Shown here one piece after another: positions 4,863-42,290 of a DNA stretch of 42,290 nucleotides; within the stretch, counting starts at the first letter, position 1, and each line of letters starts with the position of its first letter. Position numbers and translations under genes: made by a program. The stretch comes from a virus, in IMG/VR virus record IMGVR_UViG_3300021387_000086, positions 1 to 42,290 of that record; one strand, 5' to 3'. The notes below the pieces were generated by a model. The model did no database searches. It was not told the DNA's origin and was given only the letters and a program-made list of their open reading frames with translations.

Positions 4863-5348
4863 TTACTCTTTGGCGGTCCACCTTGGTAGCAATCGATAGT
4901 TGACTCCGTCGGTGGTGACGAGGTCCTGACGGCGCTGCTTGCCGGACACTGTGAAATGACCCAGATGAACCCACTCGGAACCGTTGCGGGTCTCGTCGAT
5001 ATACTGGTCATACGGCGTCTGCGTCTCGTGCAGATAGTCACGGAAAGCCTGTTTGAACTCCGTGATCCGGCTCATGTCCTCCGGCTGCATGTCGATAGCC
5101 AGTCCTTCCGGATGGACCGAGGTCGATGAGGACTTCTCCAACTTGGCAATCTTCTCGAAACCCCGGAAGCACGATGTGACGCGTATCGGGCCGCCCCATC
5201 GTTGCCGGAAGGGTTCAATCACCTCGTAGATCATCCGGCAGAGGTGCACCGTCTGCACGGCGTTCGGCTCGTTGGGCAGACCTTTGGCTTTGGCGGTCTT
5301 GGAGGCAGTCAGTTCCTCCAGCGTAAAATGTTCGGTAATAGGTGTCAT
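4863..5348 (-). CDS. Endolysin, peptidase M15 family (zinc D,D- or L-Ala-D-Glu peptidase-like)
   Basis: ATG at 5348. FTLEELTASKTAKAKGLPN, SVHPEGLAIDM and WVHL match the H-x6-D...H zinc motif of M15 peptidases. Confidence 0.8.
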   Translation of the reverse strand: MTPITEHFTLEELTASKTAKAKGLPNEPNAVQTVHLCRMIYEVIEPFRQRWGGPIRVTSCFRGFEKIAKLEKSSSTSVHPEGLAIDMQPEDMSRITEFKQAFRDYLHETQTPYDQYIDETRNGSEWVHLGHFTVSGKQRRQDLVTTDGVNYRLLPRWTAKE

Positions 5349-5437
5349 AAATATACGATTATTAAGATTTTTTTGCGTCCGGCAAGACAAACCTCGAGAT
5401 ATCGTCTGCCTAAAGTTTACTATTATTAAGATTTACC

Positions 5438-8394: not shown

Positions 8395-8465
8395 TTATAG
8401 TGTCGTTGGTTGCGTCGTTATAGTGACGCTTGGGTTGTTGTTATAGTGACGCCGACTTGGTGCCG
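8395..8465. repeat. Three tandem ~23-bp repeats (TTATAGTGWCGY...)
   Basis: Units at 8395-8417, 8418-8440 and 8441-8465, read directly; intergenic. Confidence 0.85.
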
Positions 8466-9749: not shown

Positions 9750-10322
9750 TTACTCCCCTGCGCCGCCTTCGGAACCGCTACCCGAACCGCTGCCGGAACC
9801 ACTGCCACTGCCGCTGCCGGAACCGCCGTGTATGATGGCTCTCGTGTCCGCCGTGATCGTGGCTGCTTGCTGTGGGGTGATATAGCCCATGTTCACGGCC
9901 ACATACTCCAGATAGTCGTACACATCGTCCTCGTCCATGAGGCCTACGGGTTCGACCACCTCCTCACCGCCATCCTCTGTCACCACCTTGACCGTCTCGC
10001 CATCCGAAACCAGGCCGAAGAAGGACTTGATGTCCGTTGCTGCATCCGACTCGACGGTATCGACGTAGATCTTGATGAGCAACTTATCACCCACCGCAAC
10101 AGGCGGAAGGTTGACGAACTGGAGCGTGTAGTTCCTGGTTCCATCCTCCAACGGCAAGGATTGAAACATCGTCATACTCATAAACTTGAGCGGCGTATAG
10201 ACAGCCTTGCCGGTTGTCTTATTGAGCACGCCAAGTATATTGTCCTTGGTCAGACCGGCGTCGTAATTGAAGTACGCCCGGTTGGCTTGTGTAGCCTCTA
10301 CATGTAGGATGATATCTCTCAT
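9750..10322 (-). CDS. Virion protein with C-terminal G(GS)9-EGGAGE tail
   Basis: 190 aa; tail encoded at 9753..9827 with mixed Ser codons (tcc, agc, agt, tcg). Confidence 0.65.
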   Translation of the reverse strand: MRDIILHVEATQANRAYFNYDAGLTKDNILGVLNKTTGKAVYTPLKFMSMTMFQSLPLEDGTRNYTLQFVNLPPVAVGDKLLIKIYVDTVESDAATDIKSFFGLVSDGETVKVVTEDGGEEVVEPVGLMDEDDVYDYLEYVAVNMGYITPQQAATITADTRAIIHGGSGSGSGSGSGSGSGSGSEGGAGE

Positions 10323-15615: not shown

Positions 15616-16143
15616 TTACTGCATTTTGATGTTGTATAACTCTTTCAAGGGTACCGAATGCCGGTCGCGTATCTCGGTGAAGGACTCCATGAGCTTCCGG
15701 AAGACGCCGGGATCGGTGGTGATGATAGCGGACTCGTGGCGGTTGCCTCGGGTGAGGTTCTGCGAGGTGATGATTGCCACCTGTGTCACTGTTCCGGCGG
15801 TATCGGACTCCAACAGGATGAGCTTCGAGTGATTGTCGGCGAGGTAGAGCCTGTTGATGGTCTGCACGAGGAACGGCCAGAGGCGCAGCGTCTTGTTGGT
15901 GGCTTTATGGTCAAGGACCAATTCGACTTGGGAGACCTTGCCGGACTTCTGGAGGTGCCATAACCGGCGGACGAACTCCTCGGAGATGGAGAACGATGTC
16001 TGCCGGAGGGAGACTTGGCCATCCATCTGCGCCATCGCCCATTCGACCACATCCGCCACCTGCAGTGTATTGGTGAGATACGCCTGCAGGGGGCTTTCGG
16101 ATAACGGGAACAGGACGCTGTCAACTGCCTTATTGCTCGTCAT
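15616..16143 (-). CDS. PLD-superfamily (single HKD, Nuc-like) protein
   Basis: ATG at 16143 overlaps the upstream gene end. NHSKLILLESD...VAIITSQNLT matches H-x-K...[GS/TS]-x-N of phospholipase-D/Nuc enzymes. 175 aa, similar to the size of Nuc. Confidence 0.55.
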   Translation of the reverse strand: MTSNKAVDSVLFPLSESPLQAYLTNTLQVADVVEWAMAQMDGQVSLRQTSFSISEEFVRRLWHLQKSGKVSQVELVLDHKATNKTLRLWPFLVQTINRLYLADNHSKLILLESDTAGTVTQVAIITSQNLTRGNRHESAIITTDPGVFRKLMESFTEIRDRHSVPLKELYNIKMQ

Positions 16144-16717
16144 CCACCGGCGGATAGGTATCGTATTTCTCCCAGTTAGCGTGATAGCGAGCGTCGAGCT
16201 CGATGATCTCCTTGACGAACGGATAGCGGTCGCCATCCGGACAGTTGGACTGATTCTCCGGAAGCGTGAGCAGTACGAGCTGCGCATGGCAGGCACGCAT
16301 GTTCTGCATCAGACTCAGGTTCTCGGCGTAGAGTGCCTGGATCTCTTCCGGAAGACGGTCGTGGTCGGGGCGCTTGCCGAGTTTGAAGTCATCGGTCTTC
16401 TCGATACGCTTGAGTACCGGCGCTTTGTCTTTGCCGGGAAGGGGTGCATTGAGACCTCTTTCGGCGGTGATGACGGTGACCTTGCGTGTCATCTGCACCA
16501 TATCCTCGTGCGTCACACCGGCTAAACGCATCGGCAGACGCTTGTTCAGTTGGTACTCCACCATCTTCATATACTTCTTGGGAAGCCTTTGGAAATTACC
16601 GGCGAGGATCTGGTTGCGAACTATCACGCGCACCAACCGTGCACCGGTCTCAATGTCTCTCTCCTCCGCAGGGGTATTCAACCACTGCTGAAGGTCTTTA
16701 GTTAATTTCTCGTCCAT
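16130..16717 (-). CDS. Hypothetical protein (195 aa) between the PRTase and PLD-like genes
   Basis: ATG at 16717 (MDEKLTKDLQQWL); the track start 16759 lies inside the repeat array. Confidence 0.55.
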   Translation of the reverse strand: MDEKLTKDLQQWLNTPAEERDIETGARLVRVIVRNQILAGNFQRLPKKYMKMVEYQLNKRLPMRLAGVTHEDMVQMTRKVTVITAERGLNAPLPGKDKAPVLKRIEKTDDFKLGKRPDHDRLPEEIQALYAENLSLMQNMRACHAQLVLLTLPENQSNCPDGDRYPFVKEIIELDARYHANWEKYDTYPPVDDEQ

Positions 16718-16736: not shown

Positions 16737-16825
16737 CCCCCGGGGGTTAGGGTATGCAAACCCCGGGGATTATGGTATACAAACCCGGGGGGTTAGGGTA
16801 TCAAACCCCTATGGGTTATTATTGG
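16737..16825. repeat. Four tandem ~23-bp repeats, each starting with a CCCCGGGG-type palindrome
   Basis: Units at 16737, 16761, 16784 and 16806: CCCCCGGGGGTTAGGGTATGCAAA / CCCCGGGGATTATGGTATACAAA / CCCGGGGGGTTAGGGTATCAAA / CCCCTATGGGTTATTATTGG. Confidence 0.9.
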
Positions 16826-17490
16826 TTGTCCACGCCTACGATATAAAGGATGTTCTTGCCTTGTGGAGCGAGTAGGCGGTTCATCGCTCCGAGGGTCGAG
16901 CCGGTGGTGACGAAATCGTCAAAGCAGATCAGGTTCGCTTCATCCGGAATGTCTCCGGGCTCGAAGTCCACGCCGATGCGCTGCTTGGTGCGGGCGATCG
17001 CCACATCCGGACGGTAGGGAACTCCCAGCCTGCGCGCCATCTCCTCGGCGACCATACAGGCGAAGTTACGTTCCTTGTGCCGGCGGCGCGGGGTGGTGAT
17101 CACTGCCCAATCGCCTTGCCGGAGGTGTGTGCCGAGTACCGACTGCAGTGTCGGAACGAGTGCATTCACGAAGATGGGAATCATGGCATCGTCGGCTTTG
17201 ATCTCCGCGAGGGTCGGACCCTTGACGGTACGCTTCCAGATAGCTATGATCCGAAGCCCGACCTTGGGGAAGAGGTGCACATGTTCCTCGGAGAGGTCAC
17301 ACCGGGCGATATCCGCATGTTCGGCATGCCACGCCTTCCGGGGACCACCTTCGGCAAACAGGTCTTTGAGAGCCTGGTTACCGTCTCCTATGGAATCAAG
17401 AATGTCGGAGAATCCTGTCGGCCGAATGGTTACGGACTCCAGAACCTCCGACATCGACGGTAACTGAGCTATGTCAGGGTCGAGTAACAT
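16819..17490 (-). CDS. Type-I phosphoribosyltransferase-fold protein (ComF-like)
   Basis: PRPP-binding motif NLICFDDFVTTGSTLGA. An upstream PRRRHKERNFACMVA resembles the ComF RGFNQ region. ATG 17490 overlaps the TGA of the preceding gene (TGATG). Confidence 0.65.
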   Translation of the reverse strand: MLLDPDIAQLPSMSEVLESVTIRPTGFSDILDSIGDGNQALKDLFAEGGPRKAWHAEHADIARCDLSEEHVHLFPKVGLRIIAIWKRTVKGPTLAEIKADDAMIPIFVNALVPTLQSVLGTHLRQGDWAVITTPRRRHKERNFACMVAEEMARRLGVPYRPDVAIARTKQRIGVDFEPGDIPDEANLICFDDFVTTGSTLGAMNRLLAPQGKNILYIVGVDNQ

Positions 17491-18119
17491 CACTCGCCGC
17501 TGCCGCTGCCACTACCACTACCCTGCTCGTTGATGGTGCCGTCCTCGGTCTCGATCTCACCCTCATAGAAGGGAGCCGGAATCAGGTCGGTATGCTCGAC
17601 GTTGATGGTGGTCGTAGCCTTGCCGGTAGCACCTTGGCCATTGTCCTGTGCAACCGTGGCATTGCCCTGCCATTTGTCGTTACCGATCATACGGAACTTG
17701 CCATCCATATCCTGAACGAGAACGACCACGTCGTTGTTGTTCAGATAAGCAGCAGCCATCGTTGCTGCAGCATCCACTGCCGGGTGAACGGCGGTGAGCT
17801 TGTTGAGTTGCGTCTGGCTCGGCTTCTCGCCTTGGGCCTCGGAGGTCAACGAAGAATCGTTAACGAGGACATCGATGTGGTGGAACACCTTATCGGCTGC
17901 CATCTCGAACGAACCCTCCAGAACTGCGGAGGTCGGACGACCGAACTCATCTACCGGCAGCGTCGGCCACTTGGTGATGTTCGACTTAGCCGTGTAGTAC
18001 AGGCGGCGACGAATACCGGGGAGGACAGGCTTGCCCTCGCACCAACTCAATGAACCCTCAAGGGGTGAACAATTCGCTTTAGGCATATTCGTAATTGTTA
18101 ATGGTTTGACAATTGGCAC
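17490..18119 (-). CDS. Virion structural protein with C-terminal (GS)4-GE tail
   Basis: Immediately downstream of the capsid gene. The track start 18119 is GTG; an ATG at 18086 with an A/T-rich leader is an alternative start. The tail is encoded at 17493..17522. Confidence 0.65.
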   Translation of the reverse strand: MPIVKPLTITNMPKANCSPLEGSLSWCEGKPVLPGIRRRLYYTAKSNITKWPTLPVDEFGRPTSAVLEGSFEMAADKVFHHIDVLVNDSSLTSEAQGEKPSQTQLNKLTAVHPAVDAAATMAAAYLNNNDVVVLVQDMDGKFRMIGNDKWQGNATVAQDNGQGATGKATTTINVEHTDLIPAPFYEGEIETEDGTINEQGSGSGSGSGE

Positions 18120-18121
18120 CC

Positions 18122-18140
18122 CTCCGGCTCATCACCGGAG
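18122..18140 (-). promoter_or_regulatory. Stem-loop directly after the capsid gene (CTCCGG-N7-CCGGAG)
   Basis: 6-bp GC-rich stem with no U-run; possible partial terminator or mRNA stabiliser. Confidence 0.4.
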
Positions 18141-18153
18141 AGGTACGTTAACT

Positions 18154-19176
18154 TTACTCACCGCTTCCGCTTCCGGAACCCGAGCCGCTGCCCGAACCCG
18201 AACCTTCAGCACCGTAGAGCTTAGCTACGAGCAGACGGCGAGGATCGATGGACTCGAACTCTACACCGAAGAACATCGTAGCGACATACTCCAAGGTGAA
18301 TGCACTGAAGTGCTCGATGATCACGCTCTCGGTATCGGACATGAGGTCCACACCAATCAGCATGTTCTCCTTGGTGGTCAGGTGGATGTACGGAGAATCC
18401 TCCTTGCTCGACAGAGCTACGATCTCGCAGCGGCCGTTCGAGCCCTCGAGGATGTGCTGCTCGAAGCCCTTAACCCACGGCGTTGCGTTGTGGGTAGCGA
18501 AGTACGCATCTTCGTAAGCGTCCAGGATGTCCTGCGTTACGAACATGATCGTCTTCTGGCGACGGAGCTCGCGGTTAGCACTACGGTAGAGTTTCTTGAG
18601 AACATCTACCGCGTTGGTCTCGTCGATAGCCTCCTCCAGCTCGACATAGTTGCCTTTGCCGGCTGCGATAGTACCGGCGGTGATCTCCTTCGTCGTGATG
18701 GTGTCCCAACCGTTGAAGAGGTCAGCCGTGGTGGTACCGTTAGCCTTGCGGACTGCAGACCACAGAACAGCGTTGAGGTTCTCGCTCAACTTCTTGCAGA
18801 TCTCGACGAGGACAGCCTTCACGATCTCTGCGTTCTTCATCGCCTCACCCTTGGTCGCAGCCTTCTGACCGATGACCATGGTAGCGACGGAGTTCGGCTC
18901 GAACTCATAGTCAACTGCACCCATGAAGGTCTCCAGCTCGCGGAAGCTGAGTTCAGCGTCTTTACCGGCTTTGATGTCGTGCTTGTACGGACGGAACTGC
19001 GCATCGAGCGACAACGAACCTACCGTCTCCTTGTAGCGAATGCCGTAGCGAACGCTAACGTAGGGCATGATCTCCTCCAAACCGGTTACAGGCAATGCAA
19101 GAAATTCCTTGCGCCACTTGGTAGCAGCCTCTTGATACGCTTGAAGCTGCTCTCCAGTAATTTTACCTACAGGCAT
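18154..19176 (-). CDS. Major capsid protein with C-terminal (GS)7-GE tail
   Basis: 340 aa, directly after the protease/scaffold gene. The sequence resembles major capsid proteins of Bacteroidales prophages (from memory). The tail is encoded at 18157..18204. Confidence 0.8.
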   Translation of the reverse strand: MPVGKITGEQLQAYQEAATKWRKEFLALPVTGLEEIMPYVSVRYGIRYKETVGSLSLDAQFRPYKHDIKAGKDAELSFRELETFMGAVDYEFEPNSVATMVIGQKAATKGEAMKNAEIVKAVLVEICKKLSENLNAVLWSAVRKANGTTTADLFNGWDTITTKEITAGTIAAGKGNYVELEEAIDETNAVDVLKKLYRSANRELRRQKTIMFVTQDILDAYEDAYFATHNATPWVKGFEQHILEGSNGRCEIVALSSKEDSPYIHLTTKENMLIGVDLMSDTESVIIEHFSAFTLEYVATMFFGVEFESIDPRRLLVAKLYGAEGSGSGSGSGSGSGSGE

Positions 19177-19207: not shown

Positions 19208-20323
19208 TTACTTCAGCATTTCGCGAGCCTTGGCGAGAGTCTCAGCCAATGCCTCTGCCGGAGATTTTTCCTCGGCGTCTTGGTGTTGGCCACCCGCTTC
19301 TACTACTTGCTGTGCCTTTGCAGCCGGACGTGCCTCCAACTCCGCAATGCGGGCTTCAGCGGCTGCCAACTTCGTCTCGGCATCTGCCTTGGCGGTCTCA
19401 GCAGCGGTCTTTGCCGCTTCTGCAGCCTCTTTGTCTGCCTTAGCCTGAGCCAAAGCGTCCTCGAGAGCCTGAACCTGAGCTTCGTCCAAAGCATAACTGC
19501 CGCCCTCTTTCGGCTCCTCCAGAGCCTTGAGGTTCGCAGCAGCCAATACAGCTGCTACCATCAGAAATACTTTTTTCATAACAGTTGTTTGAGTTGAGCT
19601 ATCAGGGTTGGCATCCGGTTCTGCCACTGCCTGGGCGGTAGTAGCCTCCTTCTTGCCGAACCATTTCTTGAACATCGCTTCCAGCTGCGCGAGCCAACCG
19701 TCCGCCTCGACCGGCATGTTATCCGGAAGAGGAATACCGGCAGCGGCCATTGCGTTTGCAACCGTCTGCGTGAGTTTCACATCCTCGGTACTGTCGATGA
19801 CCTCATCCACGAAGCCCCAATCCAATGCCTCCTGTGCGGTCAGCCATTTCTCCTCACGCATCAGGTCGAGAAGATCCTTCACCGGTTTCTTGCACCGGTC
19901 AGCATACGCGGTGGCGATGGTCAGATCAATCTTCTCCGCATCGGCAGCGGTCTTCATGTACTCCGCTGCTTTCTCCTTCAGCTGGTCGGCATTGAGAGCA
20001 GACCACTCGAAGATAGGGAACGAGCACTTGTGCACGAGGTACATCGCGTTCTTCTCGATGGCGATGTGCTTGGCTCCCATCGATGCGATAGTAGCGGCAC
20101 TCGCGTTCATGCCTCGATAATAGACATGCACGTTACCATGGTTAGCAAATGCAGAGGAAACAGACAGGGCGGTAGCGACAGAGCCACCGAGCGAGTCAAT
20201 GAGTACCGACACTTCTTTGTCGGCTGCTTTATCCAGAACATAGTCAACATAGTCGGAATCGAAGTCCCAACTGCCGACATAGCCTTTAAGTTTCAAATCG
20301 AATTTCTTTGCCATAGCGCACAT
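19208..20323 (-). CDS. Prohead serine protease (ClpP/S14-S49-like) fused to a coiled-coil scaffold domain
   Basis: DSLGGSVATAL and GMNASAATIASMG...LVHK match the ClpP-type pattern. Ala/Glu/Lys-rich C-terminus AEAAKTAAETAKADAETKLAAAEARIAELEA. Start is ATG 20323 or 20314, since the track start 20500 lies upstream of the promoter. Confidence 0.8.
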   Translation of the reverse strand: MCAMAKKFDLKLKGYVGSWDFDSDYVDYVLDKAADKEVSVLIDSLGGSVATALSVSSAFANHGNVHVYYRGMNASAATIASMGAKHIAIEKNAMYLVHKCSFPIFEWSALNADQLKEKAAEYMKTAADAEKIDLTIATAYADRCKKPVKDLLDLMREEKWLTAQEALDWGFVDEVIDSTEDVKLTQTVANAMAAAGIPLPDNMPVEADGWLAQLEAMFKKWFGKKEATTAQAVAEPDANPDSSTQTTVMKKVFLMVAAVLAAANLKALEEPKEGGSYALDEAQVQALEDALAQAKADKEAAEAAKTAAETAKADAETKLAAAEARIAELEARPAAKAQQVVEAGGQHQDAEEKSPAEALAETLAKAREMLK

Positions 20324-20338
20324 TTTTAATTCCGGCTG

Positions 20339-20346
20339 CAAAGGTA
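20339..20346 (-). promoter_or_regulatory. Bacteroides-type -7 promoter box (TACCTTTG) for the head operon
   Basis: Minus strand GGTGTTGTACCTTTGCAGCC, 16 nt upstream of ATG 20323. Confidence 0.6.
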
Positions 20347-20418
20347 CAACACCGGTCGCGCGACTGGCAAGTTCAATATAAACAGGAAAAACGCACGTCT
20401 CGCGTGCGTACGTAGAAC

Positions 20419-20490
20419 CGGAAAGAAACGGAAAGAAACGGAAAGATTTTTCTTTTTTCCGGAAAGAATTCGGAAAGAAACGGAAAAGAA
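20419..20490. repeat. Six copies of CGGAAAG(AAA) upstream of the head-operon promoter
   Basis: Copies at 20419, 20429, 20439, 20460, 20471 and 20481. Confidence 0.85.
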
Positions 20491-20522
20491 AAGGGGACAA
20501 ACTACCTTCCGTAGCTGTCCCC
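20481..20522 (-). terminator. Intrinsic terminator ending the early/replication operon
   Basis: Minus strand GGGGACA-N16-TGTCCCC followed by TTTTCTTTTCC. Confidence 0.7.
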
Positions 20523-20577: not shown

Positions 20578-21351
20578 TTATTCACCCGGCCACTCAAAGC
20601 GTGAGCGTTCCGGGAATAACTCTTTGAGATATTCCTCCACTCCGGAATGGATGGCAGAGTCGTATATCGAGAAGGCGATATCATTCTGGAGCAAGGCAAA
20701 ATCCTCGTCGGTATTGAGGTGCTGGAGTTTGATATCCTTGCGACAGAAGGTATTAATGTCGAGATAATGACGGCGGTAGATCAATGCCGCGATGGGCGAG
20801 TTGCACGACAGACCGTAACGGCTGTTGAACATCGAATCCTCGAAGTCTGCAACATACGGCCAGTTGTGCAGTTCATCCCATGCTTCACGGGTGTAGAGCT
20901 TGTTGATGTGCCCTTCCCAGTACCGAAGATCGAGAGCAAACTTCTCCATGAACGCCCGGGTGTCCGCCATCGTCTTCGTGTACCGCTTATCGCCTACGCC
21001 CTTGGTAGTATCTTTGGGCATCTCCTTCCCCTTATAGAACAGTGGCCACTTCTCCAAGTCCACCGGACGAATCAGGAAATGGTCATCGGAGGAGAGAAGG
21101 AACCTCTCTACCTTAGACATCTTAAACAGCCGGCACAACTTGTAATAGACATTCAGCGCCGGTTTGTTCGTCGTGATATCTCTCACATGGAGATACCGCA
21201 CGGTCGATGGGTTAATGAACGGTGGCAACTCATCGCCAACTATATACACCTCACCGAGGTTTGCGCCGAACTTAGCTATCGAGCGCAGGGAATAGCGCAG
21301 CTCATTATTATCCCACTTCGAGCCTGTACCTATTATATATACTACATCCAT
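20578..21351 (-). CDS. Stealth-like (CR1/CR2) sugar-1-phosphate transferase
   Basis: MDVVYIIGTG resembles Stealth CR1 (D-V-V-Y-T-W-V). NELRYSLRSIAKFGANLGEVYIVGDELPPFINPSTVRYLHVRDI parallels the CR2 core ELRYSLRS...IVT.GQ.P.WL...V..V.H.DI. SSDDHFLIRPV resembles NDD.F..RP. Confidence 0.6.
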   Translation of the reverse strand: MDVVYIIGTGSKWDNNELRYSLRSIAKFGANLGEVYIVGDELPPFINPSTVRYLHVRDITTNKPALNVYYKLCRLFKMSKVERFLLSSDDHFLIRPVDLEKWPLFYKGKEMPKDTTKGVGDKRYTKTMADTRAFMEKFALDLRYWEGHINKLYTREAWDELHNWPYVADFEDSMFNSRYGLSCNSPIAALIYRRHYLDINTFCRKDIKLQHLNTDEDFALLQNDIAFSIYDSAIHSGVEEYLKELFPERSRFEWPGE

Positions 21352-21353
21352 AA

Positions 21354-23960
21354 TCAGAACGGAACTTCAGTTTGTGAATCCTCTTGTTTGGTAGCCGGCG
21401 ACTGTGCTGCAGCTGAGTCGGGTTTCGCGCGGCGTTTCTTCATCTCCTCCAGATCTGACGGAGTGACAAAGTACTCGGCGGAGAAGATAAACGGACGACA
21501 TTGCTTGGACTCATGCGACCAATAAACGCTTCCTATATCTGCCTTCGAACCGTTGGCTTTGTCGGTTTCGGTAATGCGCATGGCAAAGCGTACGCGGTGG
21601 CTGTCCGGTGACTTGGTCACGCCCGGCATGTCGGAAAGCAGATTCCGGATGTACTGCTGATCCTTGCGGGCTGCGTCCGGAACATACTTCTGAATATACT
21701 CGGTGTCGAACTCCAGCTTCATTGCGCCGGTATCGCGGAACATCTCGCCAAGGAACTCGATGAGCGAGCCCTCGAAGTTGGATGCAGTACCCGCCATCAT
21801 GGTCGCAAGGTCGTCGTTCATGATACGCTTGGGGTCGAACCACATACGGCTGCTACCCTCTCGTTCCTGAACGAACATCTGCTTAGAGTTGAACCGCTTC
21901 TGCAGGAAGTACAGGAATGCTGGCACTTCCTCCTCTATATACTCCGAATACTTCTTTGTTGGGTCGTCTCCCTCGAGCAGTCCGTTATCACTCGCCCAGG
22001 GCGACAGTCTCATCACCCAGAAGCGGATCTCGTCCTTGGCAATGAAAACAGCCTTGCGGACCTCGTTAGAACAGAGGACAAACTTGAGGAACGACGGAAC
22101 CTCCTGCTTATCCTTACCCTTGCGCTCGACGAGGATGGTCTGTGTGGTGGAGAGGTACTTGAGCTTCTCACCAACGGCTTTATTCTCACCCAGGCAGGAC
22201 TCGTCGATGCCGACGATGAGTTTGCCGGCAAGCATAGAGTTGAAGTTCGTATCGAGCAGGTTGTTATCGCCGATGACGGTATTGTTACCGAAGATCGCCT
22301 TGAGCAGGTTGAGGAAGGAGGTCTTACCGGTGGCACGGTCACGACTGACGAGCATGATAATCGGCAGGAACTCCCTCGGGTAGAAGTACGCGACGGTGAT
22401 CCAGTCCAGCAGCATCTCGTAGTAATGGAACTTATCTTCCGGGTACTCCTTGGTGATCTGGCGCAGCAGCTTCTCGATGTGCGGCCATTTACCTTGCACC
22501 GGCTTCGAGGGCAGCGGGCTGTAGATGTTATAGAAACGGTAGTTCTGCGAGTTGATTATCTCGCGGCTGTAGTTGACATGATCCGGCTCGACGGTCGTCG
22601 ATATGAAGTGCTTGTACTTGTACAGCTTCTCCGATGTGCCTTTGCCGTATTGCGCATTGATGACCTTATCGGCGATGGTGTAGAAGTCCTGCACCGTGCC
22701 CGATTTGGCTCCGGGGATGGGCTTCTCCGTCACCAGCACTATCTCCGAACCGATGGCGACATAGTCCTTGAGCGATTGGTCCAGCAGCTGCACCAGTTTC
22801 TTCTCGCTCTCGAGGTAGCGGTAGGTAGCACCCTTGTAACGGAACTCGTGTCCTTTGATCTGCGGCTCCCATGCCTTGTAGAAATCCTCCGGCGACTGCA
22901 GGTTGAAGATTGCCCGGATGTTACCATCGTTGCAGGTACGCAGGTTCTTCTTGACGAAGTAGATACCTGTGCGGCCCGGATGATTGAGGTCATCGGCAAT
23001 GGCGGTGATCTCGTCCTTGAACTTATCTTCGACGATGAGGTCATCCAGTCCCTTGGGGCTATTGTTGACGGTGTACGGCTCGCCGGTACGCTCGTCGATC
23101 AGTTCCTCATCCTCGAACATCTTATTGACATACGCAAAGAAGATCTCGCAGGGGTTGCCCTGTGCGTTCTTGAACTCCAGCAGCAAGTCCTTCAGATTGA
23201 GCAAGGAGTGCATGAAGGCTTGCGGACGCTTGGAGAGGTCCGGCGTCTCACGCCATGTCTCCTTGCTGCCTGTCTTCCACGGGTTAGTGCAGTCACCGTC
23301 GTACAGGATGATGATGTTATCCGGCTTGACGGCGTTGAGGAAACGAACGATATCCGGATAGAGCTGCTTGGTCTTACCGTCCTTGTAGAGCGTGACCGAA
23401 CCGAGACCGATGACCGCCATGCCGTGAACGGAAGCCACCATCGCCTTCATGTAGCCCTCGGTGAGGATCACGGTCTCGATGTGCTCGCCCTTCAGATACT
23501 TGCGGTACAGTTCCGGCGGGAAGAAAGGATACGTGCCCTTCTTGGTCTCGCCGCCGGGGTACTTGTACTTGCCGGCATCCTTATCTGACTTCTTCGCCTC
23601 CTCCCAGTTCTTTGGCGACAGACGGGTGATGTAGTACAGATCCTCCACTTCTCCGTCGCTGTACTTGGGCTGCTTATCCCGGGTATAGGAGATGAGTCTG
23701 CCTTCGAGGGTATAGGGGTACATCCGAATGTTGTCATCCTGATCAGACTGGAAGAGTGGCCACTGCGGTACCAGTGTCCCCTCTCCGTTATCGGCCATAT
23801 AGACACGACCCATACCGATGGACTCGTCAAAGTCCTCCGGGTTGTGCCATTCGGCTACTTTCTTATGCCACTTCAGGGGTAGTGAGACCTGCTCACGGGT
23901 CAGACCACACAGGTCAAAGACGCGCTCCTGGAGATAGCTCTTTGTCTTCTCCTCTGCCAT
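21354..23960 (-). CDS. Toprim primase fused to an SF3 (P4/D5-type) replicative helicase
   Basis: 868 aa. ILTEGYMKAM (Toprim Glu), IIILYDGD (DxD), SRDRATGKTSFLNLL (Walker A), LIVGIDES (Walker B). Confidence 0.85.
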   Translation of the reverse strand: MAEEKTKSYLQERVFDLCGLTREQVSLPLKWHKKVAEWHNPEDFDESIGMGRVYMADNGEGTLVPQWPLFQSDQDDNIRMYPYTLEGRLISYTRDKQPKYSDGEVEDLYYITRLSPKNWEEAKKSDKDAGKYKYPGGETKKGTYPFFPPELYRKYLKGEHIETVILTEGYMKAMVASVHGMAVIGLGSVTLYKDGKTKQLYPDIVRFLNAVKPDNIIILYDGDCTNPWKTGSKETWRETPDLSKRPQAFMHSLLNLKDLLLEFKNAQGNPCEIFFAYVNKMFEDEELIDERTGEPYTVNNSPKGLDDLIVEDKFKDEITAIADDLNHPGRTGIYFVKKNLRTCNDGNIRAIFNLQSPEDFYKAWEPQIKGHEFRYKGATYRYLESEKKLVQLLDQSLKDYVAIGSEIVLVTEKPIPGAKSGTVQDFYTIADKVINAQYGKGTSEKLYKYKHFISTTVEPDHVNYSREIINSQNYRFYNIYSPLPSKPVQGKWPHIEKLLRQITKEYPEDKFHYYEMLLDWITVAYFYPREFLPIIMLVSRDRATGKTSFLNLLKAIFGNNTVIGDNNLLDTNFNSMLAGKLIVGIDESCLGENKAVGEKLKYLSTTQTILVERKGKDKQEVPSFLKFVLCSNEVRKAVFIAKDEIRFWVMRLSPWASDNGLLEGDDPTKKYSEYIEEEVPAFLYFLQKRFNSKQMFVQEREGSSRMWFDPKRIMNDDLATMMAGTASNFEGSLIEFLGEMFRDTGAMKLEFDTEYIQKYVPDAARKDQQYIRNLLSDMPGVTKSPDSHRVRFAMRITETDKANGSKADIGSVYWSHESKQCRPFIFSAEYFVTPSDLEEMKKRRAKPDSAAAQSPATKQEDSQTEVPF

Positions 23961-30176: not shown

Positions 30177-30312
30177 ATTGAGAATAAGCACGAGTCAACT
30201 GTCCAACCGCCGCTGAATGTATCCCTAGTTCGATTCTCGGTGGCACCACGAGGGCAGGCTATTACAGGTCTGCCCTTCATTTTGGAAAACAAAATCGGCA
30301 CAAAATCGGCAC
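30177..30312 (+). other. att-region module A: ATTGAGAAT, tRNA T-arm/acceptor 3' mimic (30224..30248), terminator hairpin (30251..30276), 2x AAAATCGGCAC (30291..30312)
   Basis: CCTAG-TTCGATT-CTCGG-TGGCACC-A, then AGGGCAG-N12-CTGCCCT. There is no matching 5' acceptor strand or D arm upstream. Confidence 0.6.
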
Positions 30313-30423
30313 AACAGTTTTAAGTGGTGTGACGATGGCCAATCGCTCTTTCTTATTCTCAATTTCGGCACGAGGACGGCACGCAGCCGTCCGAGATGAT
30401 CCAAAACAAGAAATGTTTAACTG

Positions 30424-30569
30424 ATTGAGAATCAGGAAATGACGTTGCAAGCCCTGCCCCGGAATCCCCGGACCAATAGTCACTGGTTCGATTCCCGTTG
30501 GCACCACAAGGGCAGCAAATACAAGGCTGCCCTTAATTGTAACATAAAAAATCGGCACAAAATCGGCAC
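30424..30569 (+). other. att-region module B, a paralogue of module A
   Basis: CTGATTGAGAATCAG anticodon-arm mimic (loop TTGAGAA). ACTGG-TTCGATT-CCCGT-TGGCACC-A at 30482..30506. AGGGCAG-N11-CTGCCCT at 30509..30533. 2x AAAATCGGCAC at 30548..30569. Confidence 0.6.
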
Positions 30570-30574
30570 GAGAA

Positions 30575-30614
30575 ATGTTAACAGATGTTAACAGATGTTA
30601 ACAAATGTTGACGA
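30575..30614. repeat. Four tandem 10-bp repeats ATGTTAACAG (GTTAAC cores) upstream of the integrase
   Basis: 30575, 30585 and 30595 are exact; the 30605 copy is degenerate (ATGTTGACGA). Confidence 0.9.
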
Positions 30615-30671
30615 GCCGTGTGCCCGATGGACTTTCTTTCCGGTTCTCGCGAGAATTGGAAAGAAAAAAAA

Positions 30672-31889
30672 ATGTCTAAATCTCACACACAAGAGTTTAC
30701 CCCTTATGTTCCGGCGGTTCTGAGGAAGAACTGCCACGGGTATGTCATTGAGTATTACTTCCTGAACGGCTTGACCGGCGAGCAGGAACGGCGAACCATC
30801 AAGATGAACCGCATCCGGAAGCGGTGCCAGACCGCTGCCGAGTTCAAGCAGTACGCGCAGAGCGTGATCTGTAACCTCAACATCAAACTCGCTAACGGTT
30901 GGAGTCCCATGGGCGAGGTGCAGAACACCCGTGAGTTCGTGCCGCTGCCGCAGATCATCGACCAGTACATGCGGGAGAAAGAGAGTGAGCTGTCCACCAG
31001 TTCACTCCCGGCGTATCGTTCCTTCACCGGTCGTCTGAAGGAATGGATAGAGACGCAGTACCCGCAATGCAACTGTGCGCTGTTTACGAAACTCATGGCG
31101 GTGCAGTTCCTCGACTACCTCTGGAGCGGGAAGAGTGCCCGGTACAACTGCGGCAAGAAGATGAACCAGGCTGACAACCATATCAGCGAGCGAGCGTATA
31201 ACAGTAACCTCAAACTCGGCCGTGCGTTCTTCAGCTGGTGCATCAACAAGTGCTACGCGAAGGAGAATCCCTTCGAGACTATCAAGCCCAAGCGAACGAA
31301 ACAGAAGACCCGCACGCTCATTCCGGAGACGATACGGTTACAGATCGACGGGTACTGGGCAGAACATAACCCTGCGATGCAGCTCATGTGCCGGCTGGTT
31401 TATACGGCGCTGCTGCGTCCGGTGGAGGCGACGAGGGTACAAGTGCACCAGATACGGTACGACCGCGATTGTATCGTCATGCCTTGCGAGCAGACCAAGA
31501 ACGGCAAGGAACGTGTCGGGCGGTTGGATGCCAGTCTGAAGGCATTGCTGCGACAGTACACCGCCGGAGCCGGACCGACGGACTACCTCTTCAGCAACCG
31601 CGAATGGAAGCCCGGCAAGAAGCCCAAGAACAGCCAAATGTTCGCGAAAGAGTGGATGAAGATGCGCAAGGAACTGAAGCTGCCTGCGAAGTACCAACTC
31701 TATTCTCTCCGGGACACCGGCATCAGCGACCTCATGCACGATGGCGTTGCAGATATCGACGTGATGCACGCCGCCGGCCATAGTGACCTGAACATGACAA
31801 CGCGCTATGCAGACCATATCGACGATGACCTGATAGCGCGCATCAATTCCAAGAGCCAGTTCCGGAAGCGTCAGCCGACAATCTCGTAG
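30672..31889 (+). CDS. int: Tyrosine integrase
   Basis: ATG at 30672 after an A-rich leader. ALLRPVEA (Arg), YSLRDTG (Arg), AAGHSDLNMTTRYADH (His and Tyr nucleophile). Confidence 0.9.
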   Translation: MSKSHTQEFTPYVPAVLRKNCHGYVIEYYFLNGLTGEQERRTIKMNRIRKRCQTAAEFKQYAQSVICNLNIKLANGWSPMGEVQNTREFVPLPQIIDQYMREKESELSTSSLPAYRSFTGRLKEWIETQYPQCNCALFTKLMAVQFLDYLWSGKSARYNCGKKMNQADNHISERAYNSNLKLGRAFFSWCINKCYAKENPFETIKPKRTKQKTRTLIPETIRLQIDGYWAEHNPAMQLMCRLVYTALLRPVEATRVQVHQIRYDRDCIVMPCEQTKNGKERVGRLDASLKALLRQYTAGAGPTDYLFSNREWKPGKKPKNSQMFAKEWMKMRKELKLPAKYQLYSLRDTGISDLMHDGVADIDVMHAAGHSDLNMTTRYADHIDDDLIARINSKSQFRKRQPTIS

Positions 31890-33697
31890 AACTCGCCCTC
31901 GATGAGTTCGGACATGCCTTTCGTTGTGAAGTGAGCGGTGAGACGAAGACAGGCGTATCGTTTGCCTTTGATGACATAGATAGCCGTGGCGGATGGCAGC
32001 GAGGACGCAAGAAACTTGTACCGATAGAGCTTCGTCTCGTCCACTTGGGGAAGTTGAAAAAAATTTTGACCAACCTCATTACTATACGGCGTGATGGTAG
32101 CCCCATATACCATGAACCCGGTATGATACGTTGGAACATCGCCACCTGTAGCATTTATCGTTTGCTGAGCATACTCGGTACCGTACACCGGCTCCCACTT
32201 TCGAGTATTCAAGTTGTAACCATTCTCGTCATACGAACCACTATGTAGAACTACGAACAGTTTATCGTATTTCTCATCCAGTTCGCCCTCTTTCGCTTTC
32301 CGGAGATCTTCCGCAGAATACCCACCGGAATATAGTTGATCGATAGACAAACCTTTAATCTGAATAACAGGCATCTTATATGGAATGGAGATAGCTGAAT
32401 TCGTCTCAGTATATTCTCCGTCCGTGTCAATTTTACACCACTTGCCATAATATTTATGCTTTATCCTCATAGTTTGAAGGGTGCAAGGTATAACCTTCAA
32501 TTCTTCACCCTCCGGATCACTCCAATACTGATTGAGCAGTTCCATCTGAATGAAGTGCTCTTTATCAGATCCTCCAAGGTCGCTACGCTCTTGAATATCC
32601 GTAAAGGCAATATAACCGGCAAACAAGTTATACTGGTCATATAATTGATATAAAGCCGTTGTCTTCAGAACCGCACTGATATCATCGTTATGCGTTGCAG
32701 CATAAGTAGTTGAATATTGCTGATCCTCCAATTTACCTCGTACCTCTGTCATAGCTAGAATATTCTCCTCAAGCATCCATGGACATATATTGATGTTATC
32801 CGGATTGCACTCATCCGGAAGCTTTACTTTTATTGCTTTTAGATACTCGCCGCTTGCCTCTTGCTGTTCTACCTTGAACTCATCAACGACTTTCAACTCT
32901 TCCTCTCCATATATATAATACTTAGCAGGAGTGAACAGCACCCTATTCGACTGCGAGTCGATTGAAAGGATAAAGCCATACAACTTGGCTATCTCCTTAA
33001 AGAACTCTTTTACCGTCCAGTGAGGAAGAGTCTTATTCAATTGCATAAAACCCTTCAGTCCATAACGACCGTAACCATTTACATATTTAATATAATTCGT
33101 CGTGTTGCACACCACAAGCCTACTAAACCAGCTTGGCAAATTATTATAATTCACCGTTATTCCTACAGACTGAGCGATAAAGTCCACCAAGTGATAGAGA
33201 TATATATGCCGATACGTTGCGTTATTGTTCTGATCAGAATATACATCTTCCTTATCAGAATCCCAAACAGGCAGATCTACCCAACCGCTTCCCATTGCAT
33301 CAGCCACATGTTCTGCTACACCGTCCGTTCCATCGATAGCCGAGTAATCGATCTCGTCAATATAAACACGAAGATTGTCTCCATCAAATTGCTGTGTACT
33401 CATCCCCTCGAGGAACTGGGCTTTGACGGATACATCGTTGACCTCAGTGATGGTCAGGATACCGGACTTATTAAACGACTCCGTGGTGATCCGGCACGGG
33501 AACGTGACGGTGGAGATATTCACGCCCTTGACGTGCAGCGCACCGAAAATCAGAATGTTCTCCGGGCAGTCCTTCATCGGGAACTCAATCTCCAGCGTGT
33601 AATCCTCCGCTTCCGTGAACAGAGGGTTCTCCGACACATATTCAAACGAGGAGCCTGTTTTCAGGACTGCCTCTTTTCCGTTAACTAAGATTTTCAT
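31871..33697 (-). CDS. Distal tail / baseplate-type protein (608 aa)
   Basis: ATGA overlap with the tape measure gene; position typical of Dit/Tal-type proteins. Confidence 0.55.
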   Translation of the reverse strand: MKILVNGKEAVLKTGSSFEYVSENPLFTEAEDYTLEIEFPMKDCPENILIFGALHVKGVNISTVTFPCRITTESFNKSGILTITEVNDVSVKAQFLEGMSTQQFDGDNLRVYIDEIDYSAIDGTDGVAEHVADAMGSGWVDLPVWDSDKEDVYSDQNNNATYRHIYLYHLVDFIAQSVGITVNYNNLPSWFSRLVVCNTTNYIKYVNGYGRYGLKGFMQLNKTLPHWTVKEFFKEIAKLYGFILSIDSQSNRVLFTPAKYYIYGEEELKVVDEFKVEQQEASGEYLKAIKVKLPDECNPDNINICPWMLEENILAMTEVRGKLEDQQYSTTYAATHNDDISAVLKTTALYQLYDQYNLFAGYIAFTDIQERSDLGGSDKEHFIQMELLNQYWSDPEGEELKVIPCTLQTMRIKHKYYGKWCKIDTDGEYTETNSAISIPYKMPVIQIKGLSIDQLYSGGYSAEDLRKAKEGELDEKYDKLFVVLHSGSYDENGYNLNTRKWEPVYGTEYAQQTINATGGDVPTYHTGFMVYGATITPYSNEVGQNFFQLPQVDETKLYRYKFLASSLPSATAIYVIKGKRYACLRLTAHFTTKGMSELIEGEFYEIVG

Positions 33698-41329: not shown

Positions 41330-42120
41330 AACCAATAGCCTCCGTATTTCTTATCGTTCTTGAAGGTGTAGTCTTTCCAGTACTTCGCCGCTTCGGATTG
41401 CTCCCAGTCGGGGAAGTCGGTCGGATGCTTGCGTATCCAGTCCACCATGCGGCGGGACTCCTCTTTCTCCTCGATCGGCGTCATCTTGCCGGTGATGGTC
41501 TTGATGACAAACTGCTTGACGTTGAACGAGAGGACGGAGAGGGTATGGTCATACTCGGTAGCACTGGCATAGGACCGGAGAGCGGTCAGCACATCGAACG
41601 ACAGCACCCGCTGCGCTAACTGTTCCTCCTCGGCGATGATCTGCGGACGGTCGGTGCGGTACTTGGCAAAGAGGTTCTTCGTTACCTCCTGCATCCGTTG
41701 CGCTTCATAGCCCTTGAAGATGGTGCCCTTCAGAACATCGCCGGCAAGGATGGTATCCAAGGCCTCGATGGAGTTATCCACCATCGCCTGCAGTCCGTCG
41801 AGCAGGGCATTGATCCGGTCACGGCTCGCCGGGGCTACGTTCCCGTTCGAGACGATACCGAAACCATTCTCCGTGAGGATGACATCCAAGGACGGAATAG
41901 CTCTCCGGAAGGCATCGTCCGCCACAATGATCTTCGCGTAGGTCATAGCGGATTCATTCTCATGGATATCGTCGTACTTGACTACGTTCGCCTCCAGCCA
42001 TGCTTCGGCTATCTCCAGATGGCTCTGCATCTTGGTGAACAGATCTTTCTCTCCTTCGACGGCGGTCACCACATTGGGGATGTACGTCATCAGCGTGTTA
42101 TTGTCGGGAATGTACCTCAT
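41326..42120 (-). CDS. Hypothetical protein (264 aa) downstream of the portal
   Basis: ATG 42120 overlaps the portal stop (ATGA), preceded by AAGGAGGA. Confidence 0.55.
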   Translation of the reverse strand: MRYIPDNNTLMTYIPNVVTAVEGEKDLFTKMQSHLEIAEAWLEANVVKYDDIHENESAMTYAKIIVADDAFRRAIPSLDVILTENGFGIVSNGNVAPASRDRINALLDGLQAMVDNSIEALDTILAGDVLKGTIFKGYEAQRMQEVTKNLFAKYRTDRPQIIAEEEQLAQRVLSFDVLTALRSYASATEYDHTLSVLSFNVKQFVIKTITGKMTPIEEKEESRRMVDWIRKHPTDFPDWEQSEAAKYWKDYTFKNDKKYGGYWL

Positions 42121-42290
42121 TGGTTGTCCTCCTTTCCTTGGTCGTTCGTTTGTTTGATATCCTTATGCTCATCGAGCGTGGTGAGCTGCATGATCTTGCA
42201 CTCCGGCTTGACTCCCTTCCATTGGTTGACATAGCAAAGGAGCTTGTGTACCCGCAGAAGGAGGTCGTGCGTCGGTTTGTTCAGCAGCTG
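42117..42290 (-). CDS. Portal protein, C-terminal part (continuation of 1..1271 across the circular junction)
   Basis: Same frame as 1..1271 through the overlap; ends ...KIMQLTTLDEHKDIKQTNDQGKEDNQ-TGA. Confidence 0.6.
   Translation of the reverse strand, partial: QLLNKPTHDLLLRVHKLLCYVNQWKGVKPECKIMQLTTLDEHKDIKQTNDQGKEDNQ
42184..42290. repeat. Second copy of the 107-bp terminal overlap
   Basis: Identical to 1..107. Confidence 0.95.

Follow-up and report, generated by a model that had tools for sequence, protein, structure and literature searches.

Enzymes of the Stealth family move hexose-1-phosphate from a UDP-sugar onto a hydroxyl, and to our knowledge all representatives that have been characterised biochemically transfer it to the hydroxyls of sugars. 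Sugar-1-phosphates are also found on proteins of protists, namely as GlcNAc-1-P-Ser in cysteine proteinases and a spore coat protein of Dictyostelium and as Man-1-P-Ser in Leishmania. We know of no report of such serine phosphoglycosylation in bacteria or in their viruses. Additions for display on phage structural proteins include the Ig-like domains of T4 Hoc and lambda gpV and the C-terminal extension of T7 gp10B, and in mycobacteriophages a second structural protein is reportedly modified besides the capsid protein. The capsids of mycobacteriophages are glycosylated by phage-encoded enzymes (Freeman 2023, as cited in PMC12363180, PMC11256854), with Che8, Corndog and Myrna as glycosylated phages and Che8 gp110 and Corndog gp38 as enzymes of the conventional glycosyltransferase type. 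Members of the Stealth family are GNPTAB (GlcNAc-1-phosphotransferase), the capsule polymerases of N. meningitidis and CpsY of M. tuberculosis (PMC1285062, PMC11418123). Transfer to a protein serine by a Stealth enzyme exists as a proposal only, made in 2005 (PMC1285062). For Dictyostelium, where sugar-1-phosphate is found on serine in serine-rich domains, the family-defining paper named Stealth proteins as candidate enzymes (PMC1285062).

Here, we show that Gly-Ser tails of the type (GS)n at the C-terminus of a phage capsid protein and of its companions co-occur strictly with a phage-encoded gene of the Stealth family, and that both were repeatedly lost together. The window, i.e., the whole stretch of 42,290 nucleotides that was analysed, belongs to a temperate phage of Bacteroidales from the rumen or gut; a megablast search with it against 50,697 phage records gave no match. 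Its major capsid protein (340 amino acids, 18154..19176, minus strand) was assigned by AlphaFold2, Foldseek, gene context and 345 homologues. The model (pLDDT 81, pTM 0.78) matches the shells of P4, GTA, T5, Che8 (8e16) and encapsulin in the PDB with a Foldseek probability of 1.0, with TM-scores of up to 0.55-0.62 against phage and encapsulin shells. Directly upstream lies a gene whose product joins a ClpP-type head maturation protease with a scaffold-like coiled coil (19208..20500, minus strand; phrog_94 E=5e-28, Pfam CLP_protease E=6e-16); the real start of this gene is probably inside the open reading frame. With the HK97 fold and the protease-scaffold gene upstream, the capsid identity assumed in the original prediction is borne out. 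An intergenic hairpin between the capsid gene and the gene that follows it (18116..18146, minus strand; 13-bp stem, -24.9 kcal/mol, z = -4.5) has an invariant stem and a variable loop in four relatives; it is context and stands outside the mechanism proposed below. We considered and rejected that the capsid protein is fused by frameshift or read-through with the product of the following gene, as all three frames are closed within 12 codons, before the start of that gene.

This following gene, conserved after the capsid gene, encodes P209 (17490..18119, minus strand) and was characterised by AlphaFold2, structure searches and homologues. It probably starts at the ATG at 18086 (198 amino acids) and not at the GTG at 18119. 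Its model (pLDDT 79) gives weak PDB matches to neck or tail-tube-like folds; in BFVD it matches uncharacterised Flavobacteriia phage proteins strongly and head-tail adaptors weakly. A sequence search of the PDB gave no matches. P209 is a candidate for a neck or connector protein, or for a surface protein. The third protein, P190 (190 amino acids, 9750..10322, minus strand), is modular: its N-terminal domain varies, and a C-terminal module of ~75 residues, which ends in the GS tail, is conserved; its location in a tail-fibre block, as claimed before, is not supported. All three had been called virion proteins; P209 and P190 are candidates for such a role. PHROG, Pfam and NCBIfam yielded nothing useful for the capsid protein, P209 and P190, only low-complexity noise such as a "Serglycin" match on a GS run.

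In the six frames of the window there are exactly three runs of (GS)n with n of at least 3, and each is a C-terminal tail on the minus strand. The capsid protein ends ...AKLYGAE(GS)7GE-stop (tail E-(GS)7-GE, 18157..18207), P209 ends ...NEQ(GS)4GE-stop (tail (GS)4-GE, 17493..17522) and P190 ends ...HG(GS)9EGGAGE-stop (tail G(GS)9-EGGAGE, 9753..9827). Translations and the six-frame scan agree on the positions for which these tails had been predicted. In the AlphaFold2 model the capsid tail is disordered (residues 326-334, pLDDT <50). The mixture of codons noted earlier is real: serine is encoded by TCG, TCC, AGC and AGT and glycine by GGT, GGC and GGA, with four TCN and three AGY serine codons in the capsid tail and four TCN and five AGY in that of P190.

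No single synonymous change converts a TCN into an AGY codon. Both classes are mixed in 21 of 26 GS arrays of those 14 relatives with the Stealth-like gene that were identified first, and each array uses 2-4 glycine codons. It is this mixture that indicates selection on the peptide. Together with the occurrence of the same tail type on non-homologous proteins of one genome it upholds the view of the original prediction that the peptide is maintained and not a DNA microsatellite. Neutral replication slippage, by which microsatellites would end genes by chance, could account for the fast shifts in repeat number among close relatives, from (GS)2 to (GS)14, and for the short runs of identical 6-nt units that are visible. 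It would leave unexplained the mixed serine codons, the presence of three runs where 200 dinucleotide-preserving shuffles of the window average 0.03 and never yield more than 1, the restriction of the runs to the C-termini of a few specific proteins, the co-variation of GS runs with one gene and the convergence of unrelated proteins on one peptide. We regard slippage as extremely improbable; as far as sequence can, the codon data refute a neutral microsatellite.

The exact end of the tails is less constant than had been assumed. Gly-Glu is the commonest ending of capsid and P209 tails in loci with the Stealth-like gene, being found in 8 of 18 tallied capsid tails (otherwise GN, SN, QG, AE, AA, GQ) and in 4 of 17 P209 tails (otherwise GN, AE, SN, NE, GD, DN, NS). 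Endings vary among relatives, so that termination exactly after Gly-Glu is no rule, and GE is common also among non-GS tails of the P209 family. As a conserved motif GE is ruled out by these variable endings and its presence on non-GS tails. Whether GS-GE tails recur in capsid homologues had been posed as a question with the original prediction: GS tails do recur, in loci with the Stealth-like gene, and the exact GE ending is not conserved among them. The frequency of GE is what could speak for a ligatable or cleavable tag, be it a tail like that of Pup or a signal that the prohead protease recognises. Besides the variability of the ending, the lack of any Pfam match to a ligase or deamidase in the window (open reading frames of at least ~90 amino acids and one of 77) and the lack of a frame that permits read-through or frameshift fusion beyond the stop codon argue against such a tag, which we can hardly credit. 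The proposed resemblance to Pup finds no backing in particular, since there is no conserved GGQ or GGE end and Pfam reveals no PafA/Dop-type ligase in the window reading frames searched.

A gene that was overlooked in the earlier work (20578..21351, minus strand) immediately precedes those for protease and capsid. From its Pfam CR2 match, profile matches and motifs, its product of 257 amino acids belongs to the Stealth family, of which it is a minimal and soluble form with predicted hexose-1-phosphate transferase activity. Four Pfam entries describe the family (PF17101, PF11380, PF17102, PF17103). Stealth_CR2 matches the window protein with E=4e-9 and 37.0 bits, which is 2.4 below the gathering cutoff of 39.4, and it matches six of six aligned relatives; CR4 gives weak matches in four of these six (E=0.013-0.064), and Pfam returned no separate CR3 match on the enzyme. 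A profile of the six relatives finds the solved catalytic domains of GNPTAB (E=2.7e-8), its Drosophila homologue and M. tuberculosis CpsY (2.4e-5). CR1 of Stealth proteins is a short N-terminal motif, IDVVYTF or similar (PMC1285062), and is represented here by MDVVYIIG (residues 1-8), of which M1, D2, V4 and Y5 are invariant in the six relatives. CR2 is the best conserved block of the family; it comprises ~100 residues and closes with the NDD site that binds metal and UDP. Here its sequence ELRYSLRS is identical (E17-L18-R19), and SDD (S88-D89-D90) stands in place of NDD. Key residues of GNPTAB are R322, N406-D407-D408 and the catalytic His956 (PMC11418123), against which E17-L18-R19, S88-D89-D90 and His148 of the phage enzyme can be set. 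In Stealth proteins CR3 holds the catalytic histidine; the invariant His148 of the phage enzyme (E-G-H) falls opposite A-H-M-P-H in the S1S3 enzyme, in a stretch of the HMM alignment that has lower confidence. The CR4 tetrapeptide is SIYD (F-S-I-Y-D, or F-S-T-E-E in L071) versus the near-universal CLND/CIND, and the adjoining FPxxSxFE motif aligns with FPIPSQFE of GNPTAB. No membrane segment is predicted (maximum Kyte-Doolittle mean over 19 residues 0.67). A search with the sequence of this enzyme in a library of 1.84 billion proteins places the enzyme in a family of mini-Stealth proteins of ~240 residues with 1,441 clusters at 50% identity. Among window reading frames of at least ~90 amino acids and one of 77, Pfam detected no other transferase, glycosyltransferase, kinase or ligase.

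All 19 loci that combine the capsid family with the Stealth-like gene have GS-dominated capsid tails (window, L003, L005, L006/L084, L009, L010, L071, L106, L111, L113, L116, L173, L175, L176, L180, L181, L183, L184 and L194). Homologues of P209 are GS-tailed in every gene-bearing locus in which P209 was complete and examined. After clustering at 95% capsid identity, GS tails are present in 14 of 14 clusters with the gene versus 0 of 21 without it; in the latter the tail is absent or composed of mixed Gly/Thr/Asn/Glu, and three of the 21 hold a lone GSGS inside long mixed tails. The gene is the only one of the window whose presence separates GS-tailed from other relatives, and a second accessory gene co-varying with the tails was sought among the window genes and not found. 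Firm predictions made in advance were correct in four of four cases (P0162, P0160 and P0126 with the gene, P0139 without), as was a leaning one (P0178, without). According to the original prediction, a lack of tails in close relatives would point to neutrality. Many relatives do lack them; these tails disappear, however, together with the enzyme gene, a pattern that favours function over neutrality.

With a distance of only ~1.4-4.8 kb between them, the Stealth-like gene and the capsid gene should to some extent be inherited together through linkage, and this proximity is one reason to consider that the tails might be nothing more than flexible hydrophilic bristles or spacers on the particle surface without modification. 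The gene would then act elsewhere, e.g., on a host surface polysaccharide, and accompany the tails only because of linkage or because the hosts share a lineage. Low-complexity tails of diverse composition are indeed general at the C-termini of both protein families, with or without the gene. Long Ser/Thr/Gly/Asn tails occur in its absence (L177, L178, L193 and P0159-type P209 proteins); P209 of L177, a locus that lacks the gene, ends ...SSGSGSGSGSGSGDE, and in some P209 homologues the SG-rich stretch merely links an additional folded domain. Co-variation is, however, perfect across lineages that are interleaved on the capsid tree, where the gene-less L075/L082, L011, L001, L007/L008 and L004 stand between gene-bearing ones. 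Two sisters of L111 and the window, L004 and L182 (83-86% capsid identity), lack the gene, and although their protein cores stay close, the tails of two genes distal to the enzyme gene, capsid and P209, have both changed to Gly/Glu/Thr. Linkage alone would not predict that enzyme alleles are uncoupled from capsid cores, yet enzyme divergence is uncoupled from capsid divergence: L184 has 93% capsid and 42% enzyme identity, and L173 63% and 60%. P190 too is GS-tailed at a distance of ~8-10 kb, and the success of the four advance predictions also counts against mere bristles. Both the bristles and the host polysaccharide as target of the enzyme appear to us rather unlikely.

The rule does not extend to all mini-Stealth genes of phages. 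No GS tails lie within 10 kb of distant homologues with 24-38% identity (L087-L110, L185-L187), which come from other viral contigs and from Paludibacteraceae MAGs. This fits with bristles as well and means that the family has other targets too. On an unrelated high-GC contig a Stealth-like gene lies beside extremely Ser-rich reading frames of the tail region.

From these sequence patterns we favour, as rather probable, that the enzyme adds sugar-1-phosphate to the tail serines and thereby provides the virion with an anionic glycan coat. The GS tails would be the acceptor sites of the phage-encoded 257-residue enzyme, which late in infection would encounter the capsid protein, P209 and P190 in the cytoplasm soon after their synthesis and transfer sugar-1-phosphate onto serine hydroxyls of their disordered C-terminal tails. 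The assembled virion would carry a dense, hydrophilic, negatively charged layer of sugar phosphates; if the head has T=7 symmetry, as the size of the genome suggests, ~415 subunits with 7 serines each would offer ~2,900 sites on the head alone. Serine as acceptor and exposure of the tails on the particle are presumed here, and the benefit may consist in shielding, colloidal stability or adhesion. The original idea of Ser-linked sugar-1-phosphate has gained strong circumstantial support by a Stealth-family gene that lies beside the head genes and co-varies with the tails.

Serines could also be subject to another chemistry, either O-glycosylation or phosphorylation by the host or a Stealth-like transfer of something besides hexose-1-phosphate. 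The divergent CR4 would be in line with this, as would Glu389 of GNPTAB, which contacts GlcNAc and has no clearly conserved counterpart in the phage alignments, and a gene with faint Pfam matches to glycosyltransferase family 2 (GT2) that adjoins the enzyme gene in one relative (L176). Conservation of the residues that bind UDP and metal and, in the lower-confidence alignment, of the catalytic histidine speaks for hexose-1-phosphate, and Pfam recognises no glycosyltransferase or kinase in the window reading frames of at least ~90 amino acids and one of 77. We consider another chemistry quite doubtful. A variant of sugar-1-phosphate transfer, in which the enzyme would polymerise hexose-1-phosphate chains primed on the tail serines by analogy with the Stealth capsule polymerases of Neisseria, seems unlikely; if true, the protein tails would be the base from which the particle grows a polyanionic coat similar to a capsule or to teichoic acid.

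The link between tails and enzyme suggests a previously undescribed coating of the virus particle with sugar phosphates. If transfer to the tails is true, some phages of gut and rumen Bacteroidales coat their particles chemically, for which a single small enzyme and a simple tag encoded in the genome suffice, and virion glycosylation extends beyond mycobacteriophages to a phosphodiester-linked sugar. It would be the first serine phosphoglycosylation in a prokaryote or virus; even with single additions it would be, as far as we know, the first case of protein phosphoglycosylation outside protists, and also the first pair of enzyme and acceptor for this modification that genetics has defined. 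The mini-Stealth family of ~240 residues would obtain a function. Such a coat would bear on the resistance of gut phages to proteases, antibodies and aggregation and on their sticking to mucus or capsules, and an enzyme of ~250 residues with a (GS)n acceptor would be an attractive tool for site-specific glyco-engineering of proteins or capsids. The rule can be checked in any metagenome: the enzyme gene is predicted wherever members of this capsid family have pure GS tails, and vice versa.

Compared with the described systems, the locus combines features of several. As in the mycobacteriophages, a phage transferase is proposed to modify its own HK97-fold capsid and to produce a glycan coat on the particle, and the fold of the window capsid matches, among others, that of the Che8 capsid (8e16). 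Unlike those phages of Actinobacteria, this Bacteroidales phage has a Stealth-type phosphotransferase, and Pfam detects no GT-A/GT-B glycosyltransferase of the Che8 gp110 kind in the window reading frames of at least ~90 amino acids and one of 77. The predicted linkage is a phosphodiester, anionic and acid-labile, and the acceptor would be a dedicated (GS)n tail. Like the Stealth family, to which its sequence belongs, the enzyme has a core that would run from CR1 to CR4, the ELR motif, the (N/S)DD motif and, in the lower-confidence alignment, the catalytic histidine. In contrast with other Stealth enzymes, it has only ~250 residues without accessory domains or membrane anchor, its CR4 tetrapeptide is divergent, its gene sits in a head-gene module and its proposed acceptor is a protein serine instead of a sugar. 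Protist phosphoglycosylation resembles the proposed reaction in that sugar-1-phosphate is placed on serines of serine-rich low-complexity stretches, and we take the GS tails to be similar to its Ser-Gly acceptor sequences; the protist process, unlike that of the phage, is eukaryotic and belongs to the Golgi or secretory pathway. Finally, the tails are, like T4 Hoc, lambda gpV and T7 gp10B, optional C-terminal additions to structural proteins that would project from the particle and that vary between relatives, and some P209 homologues end in a folded domain after an SG linker. Hoc, gpV and gp10B exert their effect directly, as folded domains or as products of frameshifting, whereas the GS tail consists of the repeat alone and is paired with an enzyme gene.

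Three proteins of the window, all encoded on the minus strand, end in glycine–serine (GS) tails: the 340-aa capsid protein from ORF 18154-19176 (...AKLYGAE(GS)7GE), P209 from ORF 17490-18119 (...NEQ(GS)4GE) and P190 from ORF 9750-10322 (...HG(GS)9EGGAGE). A six-frame scan of the 42,290 bases yields three (GS)n runs with n≥3 in total, all of them these C-terminal tails with a stop codon within a few residues, while the average over 200 dinucleotide-preserving shuffles is 0.03. The serine codons are TCG, TCC, AGC and AGT, and the glycine codons GGT, GGC and GGA; the original prediction thus located and described the tails correctly. Its view that the peptide and not a DNA repeat is maintained is also borne out: 21 of 26 GS arrays among the relatives use both serine codon classes and the capsid and P209 tails of one genome differ in DNA sequence, hence the shared feature is the peptide and not copied DNA. 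The proposed exact Gly-Glu ending, however, is frequent without being conserved and also occurs on non-GS tails, which leaves the suggested analogy with Pup unsupported. We assign no specific mechanism to it; speculatively, a polar or acidic last residue could keep a disordered end unlike a degradation signal.

An integrase (30618-31889), large terminase subunit (37618-39246), tape-measure-like protein (33694-37605), M15 peptidase (4863-5390) and primase-helicase (21354-23960) mark the window as the siphophage-like genome of a temperate phage of uncultured Bacteroidales; prophage relatives were found in MAGs of rumen Bacteroidales and Paludibacteraceae. It looks like a circularly permuted complete genome; the gene that precedes the DUF6712 gene in relatives and is conserved there appears to be split by the window ends (1-750 and 42120-42290). 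Repeats of 10-11 nt at 30289-30609 adjoin the integrase gene and may be arm-type or operator sites. Intergenic tandem repeats lie at 16738-16809 (23 nt x 3.2, CCCCGGGGGTTAGGGTATACAAA), flanked by two head-module genes, and at 8395-8452 (23 nt x 2.5). A head-neck module protein (15616-16296, minus strand) shows a weak PLD-like match (PLDc_2, E=4e-5) and is kept in relatives whether they carry the Stealth-like gene or not (L180, L182).

Neither Pfam nor PHROG offers a match for the 340-aa protein. Its structure, predicted with 59 aligned homologues (pLDDT 81, pTM 0.78), resembles HK97-fold shells including those of P4, GTA, T5, Che8 and encapsulins (Foldseek probability 1.0), and directly upstream lies a gene for a ClpP-type protease joined to a scaffold-like part. 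The 340-aa protein is the major capsid protein, with its final ~20 residues predicted to be disordered. P209 is the next gene after that for the capsid protein in all relatives. The model of its product (pLDDT 79) shows strong likeness to uncharacterised proteins of Flavobacteriia phages and weak likeness to neck, adaptor and tube-like folds; P209 is part of the head-neck gene module and is a candidate connector or surface protein. In some homologues (L069, L080, L177, P0181) an extra folded domain of 100-250 aa lies beyond an SG-rich linker at the tail position, an arrangement suggesting that this end of P209 faces outward on the particle. A strong hairpin (18116-18146, minus strand; 13 bp, -24.9 kcal/mol, z = -4.5) separates the capsid stop codon from P209. 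Its stem is invariant and its loop variable in four relatives, and it has no U-run; it may adjust capsid expression relative to that of downstream genes, or lend stability to the capsid mRNA. Because GTG 18119 falls within its 3' arm, the true P209 start is probably ATG 18086. P190 is modular: its conserved C-terminal module of ~75 aa (...GLMDEDDVYDYLEDIAV...TRAIIHGGSGSG..GE), with the GS tail at its end, is found across relatives behind four or more unrelated N-terminal domains (P0241-P0261). This reverses the usual fibre layout of conserved N-terminus and variable C-terminus, and the earlier placement of P190 in a tail-fibre block is not established.

Among relatives the conserved capsid core stops at ...FESIDxRRLxVxEL and is hypervariable beyond. 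A large clade from Bacteroidaceae MAGs has no tail and ends in ELAGL, ELAEQG or ELAD; other relatives carry either tails made up purely of 2 to 14 GS units or longer ones of mixed composition, rich in Gly, Ser, Thr, Asn, Gln, Pro and Glu. P209 tails vary in the same manner and the two tails of one genome are alike in flavour, for example GS with AAGS interruptions (L010), SGSA units (L071), GT/GE (L004) or short acidic ends (...AEGEE and ...PAGE, L001).

One gene co-varies with these tails. It encodes a 257-aa Stealth-like enzyme (20578-21351, minus strand, just upstream of the protease gene; Pfam Stealth_CR2, E=4e-9). Loci were collected with a capsid profile (82 viral loci), with an enzyme profile in viral, metagenome and genome collections, and by exact-protein look-ups. 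Capsid tails are GS-dominated in 19 of 19 loci with both capsid family and enzyme gene, and P209 has a GS tail in gene-bearing loci wherever it was complete and examined. Gene-less capsid clusters (95% identity, 5 kb or more of sequence upstream) show GS-dominated tails in 0 of 21 cases and a lone GSGS within long mixed tails in three, "gene-less" referring to mostly 10-kb flanks beyond which a distant copy is possible. Ser/Thr-rich tails without the gene occur in L177, L178 and L193. In the capsid-core tree gene-less lineages (L075/L082, L011, L001, L007/L008, L004) are scattered among gene-bearing ones; on this tree the pattern is not confined to one clade. The window and L182 form the clearest pair. 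In both, the primase gene is followed by those for protease, capsid and P209, but the enzyme gene that the window carries between the first two is missing from L182, whose tails are ...AASEEGTGEG and ...TGTGSGE. That enzyme and capsid genes simply hitch-hike as a single block is made less likely by L184, where 93% capsid identity goes with 42% enzyme identity, the two divergences thus being uncoupled. When every window gene was scored for presence or absence across loci, no other gene separated GS-tailed from non-GS loci. Predictions of the enzyme gene from P209 tails alone, recorded ahead of the final look-ups, were correct in four of four firm cases and one leaning case.

Six aligned enzyme relatives all match Stealth CR2 and four weakly match CR4; the window enzyme scores slightly below the Pfam cutoff. 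A profile built from the six relatives recovers the catalytic-domain structures of GlcNAc-1-phosphotransferase from human and zebrafish (E=2.7e-8), as well as the Drosophila homologue and M. tuberculosis CpsY. Invariant are the N-terminal MDVVY, ELRYSLRS and SDD, the last occupying the position where other Stealth enzymes have the metal-site NDD; an invariant histidine lines up, in a lower-confidence stretch of the HMM alignment, with His956, the catalytic residue (PMC11418123), and the C-terminal FPxxSxFE corresponds to FPIPSQFE of GNPTAB. CR4 is atypical, its tetrapeptide CLND being absent from the aligned phage enzymes. The 257 residues contain no hydrophobic segment, so the enzyme should be cytoplasmic, where capsid protein is synthesised. 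It belongs to a large, mostly unannotated mini-Stealth family of ~240 aa (P0262-P0411), which comprises 1,441 clusters at 50% identity (E≤1e-3; 510 with E≤1e-10), is listed as of unknown function in PHROG 7999 and has no NCBIfam model; near its distant members in other phages no GS tails were found. On an unrelated high-GC viral contig (L092, 6110-11400) a seemingly split Stealth-like gene directly follows two tail-region ORFs of extreme poly-Ser and Ser-Gly low complexity, which may be an independent pairing with Ser-rich structural proteins. In one relative (L176, 678-1913) the Stealth-like gene is directly preceded by a gene for 411 aa that gives faint Pfam matches to GT2 (glycosyltransferase family 2); the product of this gene could add further sugars to the sugar-phosphate.

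The simplest account, which we consider fairly probable, is that the tail serines are acceptors onto which the enzyme would add sugar-1-phosphate, a chemistry that we infer entirely. The original idea of glycosylation or phosphoglycosylation gains strength from this enzyme gene, which the original prediction had missed. Gene loss is accompanied by Glu/Thr in place of serines or by a short acidic tail, as expected if selection favours negative charge and hydrophilicity in the tail. The close gene-less relatives L004 and L182 carry Gly/Glu/Thr tails at the window's GS position at the capsid and P209 3' ends (KLFVAAGGEGGEGTGNGGSEADPGEGTGEGQ, ..TGTGSGE), and there it looks as though Glu charge replaces phosphodiester charge. 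C-termini of HK97-fold proteins generally lie on the outer surface (T7 and P22 display, encapsulins), which, like the SG-linked domains of P209, fits with tail modification. Stealth enzymes so far characterised use sugars as acceptors. Their donors of hexose-1-phosphate are UDP-sugars, and in Dictyostelium sugar-1-phosphate is found on serine-rich stretches (PMC1285062). Mycobacteriophage capsids are described as glycosylated by the phages' own enzymes (PMC12363180, PMC11256854). Our literature search found no published link between a Stealth enzyme and a phage particle. The proposed system would be a form of virion glycosylation in which a Stealth-type phosphotransferase acts on a dedicated GS tag.
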